In this document: piece after piece, positions 25,440-60,429 of the stretch | Position numbering within the stretch: position 1 is the stretch's first letter | Layout: the number at the start of each line of letters is the position of its first letter | Source of the DNA: Chlorobiaceae bacterium | GTDB lineage: Bacteria > Bacteroidota > Chlorobiia > Chlorobiales > Chlorobiaceae | Direction of reading: 5' to 3' | Assembly (NCBI GenBank): GCA_016931495.1 | Contig: JAFGER010000017.1 | Coordinates: 835-64,834, forward strand | Length of the DNA: 64,000 bases | Notes under the pieces: model-generated | The model's database searches: none | Told to the model about the DNA's origin: nothing | What the model saw: the letters and a program-made list of their open reading frames with translations, nothing else | Program-made: the position numbers and the translations under genes

Positions 25440-25676
25440 GGGCGGGTATTCAGTGCGTTCATGAATGGAATCGTCTGAAACAGTGAAGGCGATGACCATT
25501 GGGCAGGCCGTCAAGGCCGAACCGTCAAATCACCGGACGGTGTTCAGAGATGCCCCAAAACCTAACAAAAAAAGCCCTGAACTTACAAGAGCGCAGAGCT
25601 TGGCAATCACGGTATTGTATCTTTTGTGCAATCGCGCCAAGCCTGCATCAAACAAGGGCTTCAGCGCGACTGTTTG

Positions 25677-25748
25677 TGACCCCAACGGGATTCGAACCCG
25701 TGCTACCACCTTGAAAGGGTGATGACCTAACCACTAGTCGATGGGGCC
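25677..25748 (-). tRNA. tRNA-Glu(TTC)
   Basis: GGCCCCATCGACTAGTGGTTAGGTCATCACCCTTTCAAGGTGG...GGTTCGAATCCC. Confidence 0.95.
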
Positions 25749-25797
25749 AAAAAATATTATTGTCCTGAAATCCGGACAGAACCTTCGTCAGACTCGG

Positions 25798-25872
25798 GGT
25801 GAATGAGGGGACTCGAACCCCCGACCTCCAGGGCCACAACCTGGCGCTCTAACCACCTGAGCTACAATCACC
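25798..25872 (-). tRNA. tRNA-His(GTG)
   Basis: GGTGATTGTAGCTCAGGTGGTTAGAGCGCCAGGTTGTGGCCCTGG...GGTTCGAGTCC; G-1/C73. Confidence 0.95.
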
Positions 25873-25905
25873 ATGTTACATACGAACTCAAAAAACATCC
25901 TCCTG

Positions 25906-25978
<73 letters not shown>

Positions 25979-26001
25979 ATAACACCTGTCGCTGCTCTCC
26001 C

Positions 26002-26077
26002 TGGTCGGGGCACCGAGACTCGAACTCGGGACCTCCTGCTCCCAAAGCAGGCACGCTACCAGCTGCGCCATGCCCCG
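26002..26077 (-). tRNA. tRNA-Pro(TGG)
   Basis: CGGGGCATGGCGCAGCTGGTAGCGTGCCTGCTTTGGGAGCAGG...AGTTCGAGTC...ACCA. Confidence 0.95.
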
Positions 26078-33054: not shown

Positions 33055-33437
33055 ATCTCGCCCATCAAAAAATCTCAAGCTCTGCAAGAAGCTGCTTGAG
33101 ATCAGCGCCCCCACATCGCCACCAAATTAAATCGCTATCACGCAGTAAGCACCTCAAGGAAAAACGATTAGAGCCCTGCTATCCCAGCATTTCTTATACT
33201 CTTAATTTACGCTTATAGCTGTAAAAAAATAATCGGCATAAATATGAAACAATCTTTGCGTAAATTTCGTATTGTTAAAAATATGATACCCCCTCAATCA
33301 TTCAGATTATTACAGTACCGTCCAACATCAAGTACATCCTGTTGTCTTGTAACTGACCGGGTACGTTGAACTAAAGCACCATTTTTCTGCATCGGCACCG
33401 CGATCCATAATTTTTTTCAATTTAAATACCATCACTC

Positions 33438-34232
33438 ATGAAAAGTTCTCAAGTAAAATTGATGCTCGTTTCAGCCCTGCTTGCGTTTACGGCCCCGCAA
33501 GTTGCTCATGCTGAAAACGACTCTGAGCCTGCATTGCCCAACATTCACGGCAAATCGCTGGCCACTCCTACGGGATGGGGCGCAGCTTATGGCACAGTAT
33601 TTGCCGGAATGGGTGGAACGGTTCCAGCCCCCTTTAGTGACAATTCTGACGCAGCGGTTGGTTTTGGAGTAGGTATCGGAAACCCCGTTGACAATCTTGG
33701 ACTGCAAGCAAGCGTTGTTTCGCTTGACCTGAGCGACTGGAAACGATACTCGCTCAATTTCAAGCTGCACCGTTACCTCGGCAATGGAAATTCGATCGCC
33801 ATTGGTGTAAACAATATCATCTTGACCGATTCGGATACTGCCAGTGACGCAAGTGAATGTTATTATATTGTTTATAGCCAGGCCGTACAGGATCCCCATG
33901 TAATCAATGAAGATACGAACATTTCAAAACTGCATTTCAGTGTTGGCGTTGGCTATGGCGAATTCTGGGAGAACATCCCTTCATATAGCAGCATTTATCG
34001 TGAAAGTGAACGTGAAGCCAGGGTATTTGCCAATGTATCATACGAGCTGTTCGATGAATTGAATGCCATTGCAGAATGGGATTGTGAATTTCTCAATGCC
34101 GGCATATCAAAGACCTTTATGGTTGGCCCTCAAAGCGCACTGGTTGCCTCTGTTGGCGCCGGCAACCTGACGGACAGATACGATGATGGAATTCGTTTCA
34201 TCTGGAGCCTCGGTGCCGGTATCATGTTCTGA
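33438..34232 (+). CDS. Predicted outer-membrane beta-barrel protein, function unknown
   Basis: Signal peptide ending AHA, alternating hydrophobic strands, C-terminal Phe (GAGIMF); AT-rich sequence. Confidence 0.65.
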   Translation: MKSSQVKLMLVSALLAFTAPQVAHAENDSEPALPNIHGKSLATPTGWGAAYGTVFAGMGGTVPAPFSDNSDAAVGFGVGIGNPVDNLGLQASVVSLDLSDWKRYSLNFKLHRYLGNGNSIAIGVNNIILTDSDTASDASECYYIVYSQAVQDPHVINEDTNISKLHFSVGVGYGEFWENIPSYSSIYRESEREARVFANVSYELFDELNAIAEWDCEFLNAGISKTFMVGPQSALVASVGAGNLTDRYDDGIRFIWSLGAGIMF

Positions 34233-34265
34233 ACATAGTATGCAATAACCATAATCTATAACGTC

Positions 34266-34526
34266 ATGAAACGTTCAATATTTTTTGCAGGAATGCTTGC
34301 GGCCATGTTTTTCGCTCCTCCTGTTACACCGGAGGCTCTGGCCTTATGCGGAGGTTCAGATGCAGTAACAGGGGCGATGACGCTCCAGTCAGGCATCACG
34401 TGGATCAATTTCCCTCAGGAAAAGGCAGCCCCGCCACCACCTCCCGAGGTGCCGCCCCCGGTTATTGAGCCAACTGAAGAGATGAAAATGGATACAGAGA
34501 AAAAAATCGCTGTACCACGAAATTGA
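34266..34526 (+). CDS. Small exported Pro-rich hypothetical protein
   Basis: Signal-like N-terminus, AAPPPPPEVPPP tract; followed by a strong hairpin. Confidence 0.55.
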   Translation: MKRSIFFAGMLAAMFFAPPVTPEALALCGGSDAVTGAMTLQSGITWINFPQEKAAPPPPPEVPPPVIEPTEEMKMDTEKKIAVPRN

Positions 34527-34539
34527 AAGCAAACCGTCA

Positions 34540-34581
34540 AAATATCCCGAAACCATCTTAAAAAATGGTTTCGGGATATTT
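34540..34581 (+). terminator. Strong hairpin / probable terminator
   Basis: 17-bp stem AAATATCCCGAAACCAT / ATGGTTTCGGGATATTT. Confidence 0.75.
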
Positions 34582-34665
34582 GAGAAATACAGCAATTCAC
34601 CATTCGTGGAATTCCTGAAAATAATTATTCGGCTGCATTTATCTCTATTTTGCGCTTTTAGAAAG

Positions 34666-35382
34666 ATGAACGGGATGTTTGAAAAAGAATTGAAAGCAAT
34701 CTCACGCCGGCCGTTCACAAGGCATCTCTACGCTTTCATCACAACCGCCATCATAGCTTTTCATGTCGGCTCCTTATATGCATCAACAGACAGCATCGTC
34801 AATAAAGAAAATAATGTAATCGGTTCTGACGAAGTTCGTTTTGTCGTTGAAAATGCCATCAACACCGGTGACAACAGGAACAGACCGTTTGCTGTACTCG
34901 ACAAAAAAAATGCAAAAATATATATCTACAGCAGCACAGGAATCCTTCTTGCAGAAACACCGGTATTACTTGGCCTTGCTGTCGGAGATCATTTGGCGCC
35001 AGAAATAGGCAGGCTGCCACTATCGAAGATAGGCCCTTCCAACCGAATAACTCCGGCAGGCAAATATTATGCGGTAATTGGCAAAAACAGCCATGGAGGC
35101 GAGGTGCTTTGGGTCGACTACAGCAGTCGTCTGGCTATTCATCCGGTTGTAACAAACGTTCCGGCGCAACGGAGAATCCAGCGTCTCAAATCTGCAACCA
35201 TCGAGGACAACCGGATATCCTGGGGCTGCATAAACGTACCGAAAACATTTTATAAAAATTATATAAGCAAATTTTTCACGACATCAGGCGGCATGGTTTA
35301 CATCCTTCCTGAAGTGAACGCTCTTAGTGATTATACCTGGTTCAGACAAAATCAGGATACAACGCAGGAGCAAACCCGCTAA
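34666..35382 (+). CDS. L,D-transpeptidase (YkuD-like)
   Basis: FAVLDKKNAKIYIY, ITPAGKY, LAIHPV...NRISWGCINV catalytic His/Cys; start uncertain (34666 or 34675). Confidence 0.8.
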   Translation: MNGMFEKELKAISRRPFTRHLYAFITTAIIAFHVGSLYASTDSIVNKENNVIGSDEVRFVVENAINTGDNRNRPFAVLDKKNAKIYIYSSTGILLAETPVLLGLAVGDHLAPEIGRLPLSKIGPSNRITPAGKYYAVIGKNSHGGEVLWVDYSSRLAIHPVVTNVPAQRRIQRLKSATIEDNRISWGCINVPKTFYKNYISKFFTTSGGMVYILPEVNALSDYTWFRQNQDTTQEQTR

Positions 35383-35535
35383 ATCTGGGGTGCAGCATAA
35401 CAGTCACAAAAAACAGGAGTTGAAAAGCAGCGCTTTGACTCCATTTTTCTTGCACTAACCAAAGCGGCGGATTGCCAATTTTTCTGAACGGCTGCTCCGG
35501 CTCTGATTTTTTACAAGCCTCAGCGTCGTCCTTTT

Positions 35536-36159
35536 TCACCGCACCATGAGATTGCCATAACGCTCCCCCAGCCCGTCGAGCGCTGCTTGCATGACCGAGC
35601 GTTTCGCTTCGCAGAATATCCGGTCTTCGATGCCATCGAGGTTGACCTCGACGTTGGCTTTGGCGCTCTGCAGGCCAGCAACCAGCAAATAGCGGCCCAC
35701 GAAAACGTCGCTCAGCACATTGGGATTTCCGATCTGTTCGAGACGGTCAGCAAGCGGCAGCATGGCGATACAGCGTTTGAACAACTCGAACGGCACTTCC
35801 GAACTTGCCTTGAGCGCCGACTGGATCGCGGCGCGGCGGGCTTCGGCCTCCTCGGGCGCGCTCTTCGGCATACGGTAAACCTGCATGATCGTGCCGAACA
35901 CCTCCATGTCGCGGTCGGCGAGGCTGAGCATCTGGCGGCGGGCGCTTTCGCACTGTTCGAGAATCGAATGCACTTCACGCTCGACACTGGCGAACTTTTT
36001 CTTGGCGACGGTCAGGTTGCAGACCATCGAAAGCAGCGCAACACCCTGAGCCGCCGTCACTGCCGCCGCCGCGCCGCCGCCGGGCGTGGGGTCGGCGCTC
36101 GAAAGCCGGTCGAGGTAGGCTGAGATTGCGGTCGAACCGAGCGTGCCGTCAGGCCTCAT
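35536..36159 (-). CDS. fchA: Cyclodeaminase/cyclohydrolase (FTCD_C, FchA-like methenyl-THF cyclohydrolase)
   Basis: LSSADPTPGGGAAAA, MVCNLT, NVLSD, NVEVNL. Confidence 0.82.
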   Translation of the reverse strand: MRPDGTLGSTAISAYLDRLSSADPTPGGGAAAAVTAAQGVALLSMVCNLTVAKKKFASVEREVHSILEQCESARRQMLSLADRDMEVFGTIMQVYRMPKSAPEEAEARRAAIQSALKASSEVPFELFKRCIAMLPLADRLEQIGNPNVLSDVFVGRYLLVAGLQSAKANVEVNLDGIEDRIFCEAKRSVMQAALDGLGERYGNLMVR

Positions 36160-37039
36160 CGTGGTAGTTCCGGTAGAGTTGCAGGGCGTTTCTCATGCAC
36201 ATGGCCACCGTCATCGGACCAACCCTCGGAATGTAAAGCGCGGCGGCCTCCTTGGCCTCCGGCTCGAAGTTCTGGATGGAGGAAAAGTTCAGGCAGACCG
36301 CGCCCGGCTTCAGCTCTTCGGCCCTGATCTTGTCGAACTGCCTGGACGGCACGCCGGTGATGACGATATCCGATTGCCGCAGCGCCTCTTCACGGCTTAC
36401 CGGCATCTGCTCGTGGCCCGGGCCGTTGACGTCCACCACGAAGCCGCCGTCGATGTCGAACGAATAGACCCGTGCCCCGTCGTTGGAAAGCATGTAGGCC
36501 AGCGGCTTGCCGACCACCTCGGAGCGGTTGAAAATGGTGATCTGCTGACCGCCGAAGGGCAAGCCGTAAGGGATATAGGCGTCGGTCTCTTCAAGCAGCT
36601 TGATGATGGCAAGCGGCGTGCAGGGCAGAATCGCCTTGAACTTCTGCGCCTCGTCGTCGAATCGCTCGTTGGCGTAAAGCTTGGCGATCCAGTACGGGCA
36701 GAGTCCTTCGACATCCTTGTGCGGCGAAATGAGGTTACGGAGTTCCGCATCGCGGCTGTCGCCCCAGATCGGATAATAGACGAAAATACCGTGAATTGCA
36801 GGATCCGAATTGGCCTCTTCGAGCATGCTTCTGACCGATTCGGGGCCGGTTTTGCGAAGGTCGAAGCGGATGCCGACATCTTCGCACCCGGCCCGCGTGT
36901 AGTCGGCGTAGGTTGCCGATGCGGGATCGTCGGAGGCCAGAATGCCGACAATCGTGATGCTCAGCCGTTCATCGCTGATCTCGCGCCGGACGGCGTCACG
37001 AAACGAGGCGGCGACAGGATTCGGGTCAAGTGCTTTCAT
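36149..37039 (-). CDS. folD: Methylene-THF dehydrogenase, FolD family, Mtd1-type (predicted monofunctional)
   Basis: KDVEGL, ILPCTPLAIIKLL, NRSEVVGKPLA, PRVGPMTVAM; lacks the cyclohydrolase YxxxK lysine. Confidence 0.85.
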   Translation of the reverse strand: MKALDPNPVAASFRDAVRREISDERLSITIVGILASDDPASATYADYTRAGCEDVGIRFDLRKTGPESVRSMLEEANSDPAIHGIFVYYPIWGDSRDAELRNLISPHKDVEGLCPYWIAKLYANERFDDEAQKFKAILPCTPLAIIKLLEETDAYIPYGLPFGGQQITIFNRSEVVGKPLAYMLSNDGARVYSFDIDGGFVVDVNGPGHEQMPVSREEALRQSDIVITGVPSRQFDKIRAEELKPGAVCLNFSSIQNFEPEAKEAAALYIPRVGPMTVAMCMRNALQLYRNYHDEA

Positions 37040-37244
37040 GAATCAACAGTGCTGTAGGTGAGAAATCTGTACGGAATGGAAACCGAAGGGGCTGACCGGT
37101 ACGAAGAGCGCTGCGGCGCTTTGAAGGTGTGCGCCAGGAATGAGACATACAGAGCTGCACGGTCTTGCATGGCAGGCTATCGGAATCCGGTCGTTGAACC
37201 GGGTGCTTGCTGCTGAACGGCGCATGGCCCGGTGCATGAGTTTG

Positions 37245-37316
37245 CTGGGGCGGCAGGATTCGAACCTGCGAATGTCGGCTCCAAAGGCCGATGCCTTACC
37301 ACTTGGCGACACCCCA
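37245..37316 (-). tRNA. tRNA-Gln(TTG)
   Basis: TGGGGTGTCGCCAAGTGGTAAGGCATCGGCCTTTGGAGCCGA...GGTTCGAATCC. Confidence 0.95.
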
Positions 37317-60021: not shown

Positions 60022-60028
60022 TACCTTG

Positions 60029-60429
60029 TGGAGATGGCGGGACTTGAACCCGCGTCCAGAACACTGCTCGATGCAGTCACCACACTCATCTCCGGTGATT
60101 GGGTTGTCGGGGGGCGATTACATCACCGGCAACGTTCGTCCCCTTATCCCGAGTTTGTACCCGCACACCCCCTCGGGCATGAATGTGCGGAGCTTACTTG
60201 CGCGAACCCGTAGGCTCAAGCGCGGGTTATGCCATCCGGCGGCTTCAGAGTAAGCGCATTCACCGCGGGACGATGGCGTCTGGGTTAACTTCTGTTAATC
60301 AGGCAGCCATTGCATACGAATAATCGTCTGCATCTATTGGTACATAGACTTGTTTAACGAGTCCGTCCATGCTGAAACTCGGAGTGCAACGACATCTCAC
60401 ACCTATCCTGTCGATAGCCTGTCATCCCC
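60029..60429 (-). ncRNA. ssrA: tmRNA
   Basis: 5' GGGGATGACAGGCTATCGAC, 3' GGGTTCAAGTCCCGCCATCTCCA; tag reading frame 60331-60299 encodes ADDYSYAMAA-stop. Confidence 0.97.

Follow-up and report, generated by a model that had tools for sequence, protein, structure and literature searches.

An Mtd1-type dehydrogenase beside FchA: a predicted two-protein C1-folate route in place of bifunctional FolD in a Chlorobiaceae bacterium

Results

The mtd-fchA locus

Here we describe a pair of overlapping genes, mtd and fchA, from a Chlorobiaceae bacterium, whose products are predicted to divide between them the two reactions catalyzed by the bifunctional C1-folate enzyme FolD. The pair lies in a 64,000-nucleotide stretch of contig JAFGER010000017.1 (positions 835 to 64,834; assembly GCA_016931495.1), which we call the window. 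The original prediction for this DNA, made from the sequence alone, was of a methylene-tetrahydrofolate (THF) dehydrogenase resembling the monofunctional Mtd1 of yeast, overlapping by 11 nt an FTCD_C-family gene that would supply the cyclohydrolase. The open reading frame (ORF) coordinates bear out the overlap, ATGAGGCCTGA, in which the start codon of fchA falls within the last codons of mtd. The same prediction spoke of genes "fused" in an operon, and this wording does not hold, as mtd and fchA are two separate overlapping ORFs. The motifs that had drawn attention to the dehydrogenase (YADYT, GIFVYYP, NRSEVVG and PCTP) are all in place in the 296-residue protein, the last of them within AILPCTPLAII at residues 136-146. 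The features of the pair, in window coordinates, are as follows.

36149..37039, minus strand: mtd, 296 aa, predicted monofunctional, probably NAD-linked Mtd1-type 5,10-methylene-THF dehydrogenase
35536..36159, minus strand: fchA, 207 aa, FTCD_C-fold protein, predicted 5,10-methenyl-THF cyclohydrolase
36149..36159, minus strand: mtd/fchA overlap, 11 nt, ATGAGGCCTGA, containing the fchA start codon and the mtd stop
36896..36910, minus strand: YADYT, residues 44-48 of mtd, with Thr48 at the position of the FolD cyclohydrolase lysine (YxxxK)
36770..36790, minus strand: GIFVYYP, residues 84-90, with Tyr88 at the position of the FolD glutamine (VQxP)
36644..36679, minus strand: LYANERFDDEAQ, residues 121-132, containing the Mtd1-family insertion ahead of the PCTP motif
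36452..36529, minus strand: dinucleotide-binding segment, from NRSEVVG (171-177) to VYSFDI (191-196)
36395..36454, minus strand: insert in the dinucleotide domain, residues 196-215, seen as alignment gaps against FolD, with an extra strand

Judging from the 11-nt overlap, mtd and fchA are presumably co-transcribed and translationally coupled. Matches found with tblastn likewise overlap in close relatives, and in a Chlorobium metagenome-assembled genome (MAG) the two ORFs overlap by 4 nt. A promoter scan found no sigma-70-like site, and Chlorobi promoters may differ; terminator-like sites at the locus were not above chance.

The dehydrogenase belongs to the Mtd1 family

Pfam recognizes two domains in the product of mtd, THF_DHG_CYH (PF00763) and THF_DHG_CYH_C (PF02882), at scores that are modest (68.8 and 61.1 bits). 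None of the NCBIfam FolD models, whose cut-offs lie at 333-559, gives more than 89.5 bits. Among all PDB sequences the best match is the NAD-dependent Mtd1 of yeast (1EDZ/1EE9; 210.7 bits, E 2.8e-61), whereas the best FolD scores 68.6 bits (E 5.4e-18). In a HMMER alignment with Pseudomonas aeruginosa FolD, T48 of mtd aligns with the lysine of YxxxK and Y88 with the glutamine of VQLP. Yeast Mtd1 reads YATWT / GIMVYFP / NRSEIVG in the same alignment, in agreement with the motifs named in the original prediction. The insertion that had been pointed out ahead of ILPCTPLAIIK is 9 residues long (YANERFDDE), corresponds to a gap in FolDs and is common to yeast Mtd1. A further insert at residues 196-215 appears from the alignment gaps to be without counterpart in FolD and to be longer in yeast Mtd1.

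The structural prediction agrees with this picture. An AlphaFold model of mtd, built on 21 family members, has a mean predicted local distance difference test (pLDDT) score of 94.1, and its top structural match is 1EDZ, with a template modeling (TM) score of 0.92 and a root-mean-square deviation of 2.4 Å; some 50 FolD/MTHFD chains follow at TM 0.71-0.80. Within the insert of the dinucleotide domain, DSSP assigns a strand at 198-202 and the pLDDT dips at 201-210.

In a maximum-likelihood tree (IQ-TREE) of 62 Mtd1-type and 14 bacterial FolD proteins, the protein falls within an Mtd1 clade that is separated from these bacterial FolDs at 100/99. All 14 FolDs have the cyclohydrolase Lys and Gln, and none of the 62 Mtd1-type proteins has either. 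In the human enzyme, Tyr52-xxx-Lys56 and Gln100 form the proposed cyclohydrolase site (PMC6443876). Residue counts at the diagnostic positions, in mtd numbering, are given below; N-R-S and S-x-D are almost invariant across the Mtd1-type proteins.

Position 48: Mtd1-type (62), Thr 44, Ile 8, Ala 5, others 5, Lys 0; FolDs (14), Lys 14
Position 88: Mtd1-type (62), Tyr 50, Phe 10, others 2, Gln 0; FolDs (14), Gln 14
Position 171: Mtd1-type (62), Asn 62; FolDs (14), Gly 14
Position 195: Mtd1-type (62), Asp 60; FolDs (14), His 14

Sequence, predicted fold and phylogeny all support the assignment of the window's 296-residue protein to the Mtd1 family and not to FolD. The expectation that annotation pipelines would name such proteins bifunctional FolD has proved right, as both NCBI and JGI so label them. 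An identity as MtdA was considered and rejected, because the protein carries FolD Pfam domains.

Three eukaryotic entries of about 1,100 aa (P0144, P0220 and P0230) combine Mtd1-type domains with a Forkhead domain and are most likely chimeric gene models. No fusion of an Mtd1-type protein with FTCD_C was found among ten long family members. In a Gallionellaceae MAG (L083:2815-3969) and in P0114, the Mtd1-type ORF extends at its N-terminus by about 60-90 aa and includes a helix-turn-helix (HTH; PF12728 for P0114), which may be a fused DNA-binding domain or the product of a mis-called start.

Cofactor

Asp195 of mtd occupies the place of the His in the xCHS NADP motif of FolD. An acidic residue ending the second Rossmann strand is the classic determinant of NAD binding. 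Based on the conserved S-x-D motif, shared with the yeast enzyme, mtd probably uses NAD+. The yeast Mtd1 structure that Monzingo and colleagues described in 2000 is said to bear on both the NAD site and the inserted strands.

The partner gene encodes an FchA-like protein

The membership of the second gene in the FTCD_C family is borne out by Pfam: PF04961 matches fchA over its full length (residues 12-189) with 210.5 bits. The best PDB match of its product is the methenyl-THF cyclohydrolase 7VG4 (E 4e-44), ahead of the cyclodeaminases FTCD (E 6e-25) and 1O5H (E 6e-23). A profile built from 16 Mtd-linked FchA homologs yields the same ranking, at 6e-57 for 7VG4 versus approximately 1e-41 for the cyclodeaminases.

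Carriers of the Mtd1-type gene have either FolD or FchA

A sample of 61 genomes of the class Chlorobia was sorted by the C1-folate genes that each contains. The Mtd1-type gene occurs in 19 of them. In ten of these it abuts FchA and there is no FolD; in the other nine it is accompanied by a canonical FolD that keeps YVRNK and GILVQxP, and FchA is absent. FolD alone is present in the 42 genomes left, which have neither the Mtd1-type gene nor FchA.

A scan of one genome per species of GTDB returned 350 stretches encoding relatives, which come from Chlorobiaceae, Paludibacterium, Achromatium, Gallionellaceae, FCPU426, Bdellovibrionota, Polyangiaceae/Sorangium and Desulfuromonadales, among others; none of the best 80 of these 350 is from Clostridia. 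We searched 36 non-Chlorobi carriers genome-wide, scoring a genome as FolD-less if it held no PF02882 match above 70 bits. Half (18/36) contain FTCD_C and no canonical FolD, with the FTCD_C gene adjoining the Mtd1-type gene in 15 and located elsewhere in the genome in 3. The other 18 contain a canonical FolD (157-251 bits) and no FTCD_C. Altogether, 55 carriers of the Mtd1-type gene comprise 28 with FchA only, 27 with FolD only, none with both and none with neither, such that FTCD_C is found in 28/28 FolD-less and 0/27 FolD-bearing carriers. This mutual exclusion of FchA and canonical FolD in 55/55 carriers supports the split C1-folate route that had been suggested for the locus.

To place these states on a phylogeny we used a tree of 50 dehydrogenases, with five close FchA-bearing Chlorobaculum relatives left out. 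Well-supported branches require at least 5 changes of the FolD/FchA state, and the best tree requires 10; in every phylogenetically independent pair FchA is opposite to FolD. The order of mtd and fchA varies across lineages as well: both orders occur, with overlaps or short gaps. Because both orders are found in different lineages, the linkage appears to be functional rather than inherited.

One arrangement among the relatives includes a third gene. In a soil MAG (L034/L035:3738-5606), a gene for an XRE-type HTH protein of 88 aa shares 4 nt with the start of mtd, and a 14-nt overlap joins mtd to the FTCD_C gene, so that the three form one unit.

C1-folate genes of the host genome

The genome to which the window belongs is Chlorobaculum-like, a draft of 2.25 Mb in 106 contigs, 92.65% complete, and the closest named homolog of mtd is in Chlorobaculum parvum NCIB 8327 (89% identity). 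Its single FolD-family gene and single FTCD_C gene are mtd and fchA themselves. A second, canonical folD, which the original prediction had proposed to look for, was found neither in this draft nor in the complete genomes of close relatives. Searches of the draft also found no formate-THF ligase (Fhs) and no formiminotransferase (FTCD_N) gene that could feed a cyclodeaminase, whereas serine hydroxymethyltransferase (SHMT) and several formyltransferase-domain genes are present. With neither FolD nor Fhs found, the gene content suggests that the mtd-fchA pair is probably this genome's only route from methylene-THF to 10-formyl-THF.

Two Chlorobaculum genomes have additional copies or fragments of these genes. 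One (G007) carries an intact mtd-fchA pair plus, on another contig (C28:20839-20973), a stretch of 45 residues that matches the C-terminus of FchA at 56% identity, possibly a gene remnant. The other, a MAG, has two mtd-fchA copies on its contigs 55 and 21 (L040 and L048), each about 84% identical to the window's protein, which could mean that the pair was duplicated or that the bin mixes strains.

Family history

In the tree, the sequences from Chlorobiaceae group in one clade, which is nested among those of proteobacteria and FCPU426. Given this nesting and the presence of the gene in only 19/61 Chlorobia, lateral acquisition by Chlorobiaceae is likely. In three close FchA-bearing relatives (G016, G021 and G058) the pair is located beside trpF, an alpha/beta hydrolase gene and a Kef-type transporter gene. 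Elsewhere, including in the FolD-bearing Chlorobia, the Mtd1-type gene has other neighborhoods, and gene order was therefore dropped as possible evidence that fchA had been precisely lost.

The main bacterial Mtd1 clade has a support of 100/98, and its relationship to the eukaryotic clades (yeast, Tremella, Penicillium and the diatom Fragilaria) appears in the tree as a polytomy. The deepest branches of the family (P0244, P0133 and P0138) are on compact, prokaryote-like contigs. The description of the enzyme as "eukaryote-like" stands in part: the family is indeed common to eukaryotes, but it also takes in some 350 species of bacteria, and its main bacterial clade is well supported. A 2024 survey, with only 157 bacteria in its sample, read MTD1 as a lineage of fungi whose placement was uncertain, a fast-evolving FolD/MTHFD2 orthologue (PMC11064299). 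A bolder possibility, which we hold to be less likely than not, is that Mtd1 is an old, mainly bacterial family without cyclohydrolase activity that was the source of fungal and diatom MTD1 and is, across bacteria, strictly paired with FolD or FchA.

Two family members deserve mention here. P0244 (L120:1135-1989), the deepest-branching, is without the Lys and Gln (YASLI, FILYP) and keeps a FolD-like C-H at the NADP site, with N-N-S replacing N-R-S; it may be intermediate between FolD and the Mtd1 type, but it has a long branch and comes from a short metagenomic contig. L066, on a contig labeled as a Lysobacteraceae MAG, has an mtd-fchA pair whose dehydrogenase is 66% identical to that of the window and is sister to all Chlorobiaceae copies. 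Either it is the nearest lineage outside the Chlorobiaceae, which would point to the donor, or the contig was binned wrongly.

Discussion

Proposed mechanism

We consider it very likely that mtd and fchA jointly replace bifunctional FolD, in the following manner. SHMT would convert serine to 5,10-methylene-THF, which the Mtd1-type enzyme would oxidize to 5,10-methenyl-THF, probably with NAD+. Because the catalytic Lys and the activating Gln are replaced by Thr48 and Tyr88, mtd is expected to be without cyclohydrolase activity, and we propose that FchA supplies it, opening the ring by hydrolysis to yield 10-formyl-THF. The FolD/FchA distribution is strong, if indirect, evidence for this division of labor. 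The 10-formyl-THF would serve purine synthesis and formylation of Met-tRNA, and the 11-nt overlap would couple the expression of the two genes. We infer both activities, the choice of cofactor and the essentiality of the pair from what is directly seen, namely identity, motifs, fold, phylogeny, gene content and the rule of co-occurrence.

In carriers that have FolD, the Mtd1-type protein is presumably an extra dehydrogenase with another cofactor, relying on the cyclohydrolase activity of FolD. This situation would parallel that of yeast, in which Mtd1 exists beside the trifunctional Ade3.

Alternative explanations

Several points weigh against this proposal. Related genomes are not independent, and the five strongly supported contrasts give a sign-test p of 0.06, which is the floor for five pairs; the raw 28:27 count overstates the evidence, yet the pattern recurs across phyla. 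The preference for NAD is suggested by one line of evidence, the conservation of a motif with yeast Mtd1. On the NCBIfam FchA equivalog NF045657, fchA scores 187.8 bits, below the cut-off of 275, and by that model would be a divergent FchA at best; moreover, the FTCD_C family takes in cyclodeaminases as well. Lastly, with a draft genome it is unproven that FolD and Fhs are absent, although single-contig genomes of close relatives are likewise without FolD.

In one alternative, the Mtd1-type protein would still be bifunctional by means of other residues, with the FTCD_C gene being redundant or encoding, for example, a formimino-THF cyclodeaminase. The pipeline label of the dehydrogenase, the breadth of FTCD_C and the sub-threshold score of fchA would all fit. 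We nevertheless regard this as very improbable. No family member among the 62 retains the Lys or the Gln, and no carrier among the 55 is without both FolD and FchA, which would be unexpected were the Mtd1-type enzyme self-sufficient. Yeast Mtd1 itself is described as experimentally monofunctional in PMC6443876, which cites Barlowe and Appling, 1990. A cyclodeaminase, for its part, would need the formiminotransferase gene that the search of the draft genome did not find. It is also conceivable that FolD seems absent through an artefact of assembly, with mtd-fchA serving as no more than an accessory NAD-linked bypass beside an unassembled folD, given the completeness and contig number of the draft and the nine Chlorobia genomes that do carry FolD alongside the Mtd1-type gene. 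That all 10 FchA-bearing Chlorobia are without FolD, three of them in a single contig (G016, G021 and G038), and that FchA is in none of the FolD-carrying genomes make such an artefact exceedingly improbable.

A third alternative concerns the cofactor and would leave the split pathway as described: the dehydrogenase may use NADP+ or both cofactors. Arg172 of the G/N-R-S motif is kept in 61/62 Mtd1-family members, and in NADP-dependent enzymes this Arg is reported, for the human DC301 structure, to touch the 2'-phosphate. In addition, MTHFD2-type enzymes are reported to use both cofactors (PMC5718140). On the other side, Asp195 replaces the His of xCHS in 60/62 family members, including the strictly NAD-dependent yeast Mtd1, and we judge use of NADP+, or of both cofactors, to be unlikely.

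Comparison with known systems

Like mtd, yeast Mtd1 (EC 1.5.1.15) has Thr and Tyr at the Lys and Gln sites, NRSE(V/I)VG and YS(F/V)D motifs, the insertion ahead of PCTP and an insert in the dinucleotide domain. As yeast Mtd1 has Ade3 beside it, so the bacterial enzyme is always found alongside a separate source of cyclohydrolase. The two differ in length (320 aa in yeast versus 296 aa), with mtd having the shorter dinucleotide-domain insert and falling in a distinct bacterial clade. Their partners differ too: C1-THF synthase in yeast, FchA for mtd, which here appears from the gene content to be the sole methylene-THF dehydrogenase.

The FolD and FchA of Clostridium perfringens resemble mtd-fchA in combining a FolD-family dehydrogenase without cyclohydrolase activity, annotated as bifunctional, with an FTCD_C-fold FchA. 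In the 2016 work of Aluri and colleagues, rescue of E. coli folD reportedly required both C. perfringens genes. In the Wood-Ljungdahl clusters of acetogens, fchA adjoins folD. The window's pair differs from these acetogen and clostridial pairs in that here no Fhs was found in the draft genome and there is no Wood-Ljungdahl context; the role would be anabolic C1 supply in a phototroph. More generally, a separate FchA for the cyclohydrolase step in some microorganisms is noted in PMC7219735, citing Aluri et al., 2016; the C. perfringens pair is cited there as well.

Methylobacterium extorquens, with MtdA and Fch (FchA, 7VG4), likewise has a separate dehydrogenase and an FchA-type cyclohydrolase, and its FchA is the solved cyclohydrolase most similar to that of the window. 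Methylotrophs use MtdA and Fch. The dehydrogenases set the two systems apart: both Pfam domains of FolD are present in the window's protein, whereas the sequence of MtdA is, to our knowledge, too distant from FolD to be recognized as a relative. Finally, bifunctional FolD of the E. coli type (EC 1.5.1.5 / 3.5.4.9) shares its two-domain fold with mtd, and its overall reactions equal those predicted for the pair; mtd differs in having neither the GRS...CHS motif for NADP nor the two cyclohydrolase residues, Lys and Gln.

Significance

The design of a split dehydrogenase plus FchA is already known from C. perfringens and acetogens, the window presents a variant of it, and our understanding of C1-folate chemistry is unchanged. 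For the bacterial Mtd1 family and its either-FolD-or-FchA rule, we found no description in the searchable literature. The results correct a systematic annotation error, in that the bifunctional FolD label hides the dependence of the cyclohydrolase step on a second gene, and the same label may lead metabolic models, among them those of green sulfur bacteria, to assign NADPH in place of NADH. The division of carriers into 28 versus 27 genomes without exceptions provides a natural experiment for the idea that it is the Lys/Gln pair that makes FolD bifunctional. That yeast Mtd1 has bacterial relatives in about 350 species, at up to approximately 45% identity, bears on the origin of the fungal enzyme.

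Other features of the window

Upstream of the pair, a tRNA gene lies on the same strand.

37244..37316, minus strand: tRNA-Gln(UUG), 204 nt upstream of mtd

Directly downstream of fchA is an AT-richer block (window positions 33100-35420; GC approximately 0.49-0.52, versus 0.58 for the window). It contains three plus-strand ORFs, convergent with fchA. Two of them are 264 and 258 aa long, the former beginning like a signal peptide, and the third is small and Pro-rich. Farther away, the window includes a four-tRNA cluster (Glu, His, Arg, Pro) at 25676-26077 and a tmRNA gene, with the tag peptide ADDYSYAMAA, at 60028-60429.

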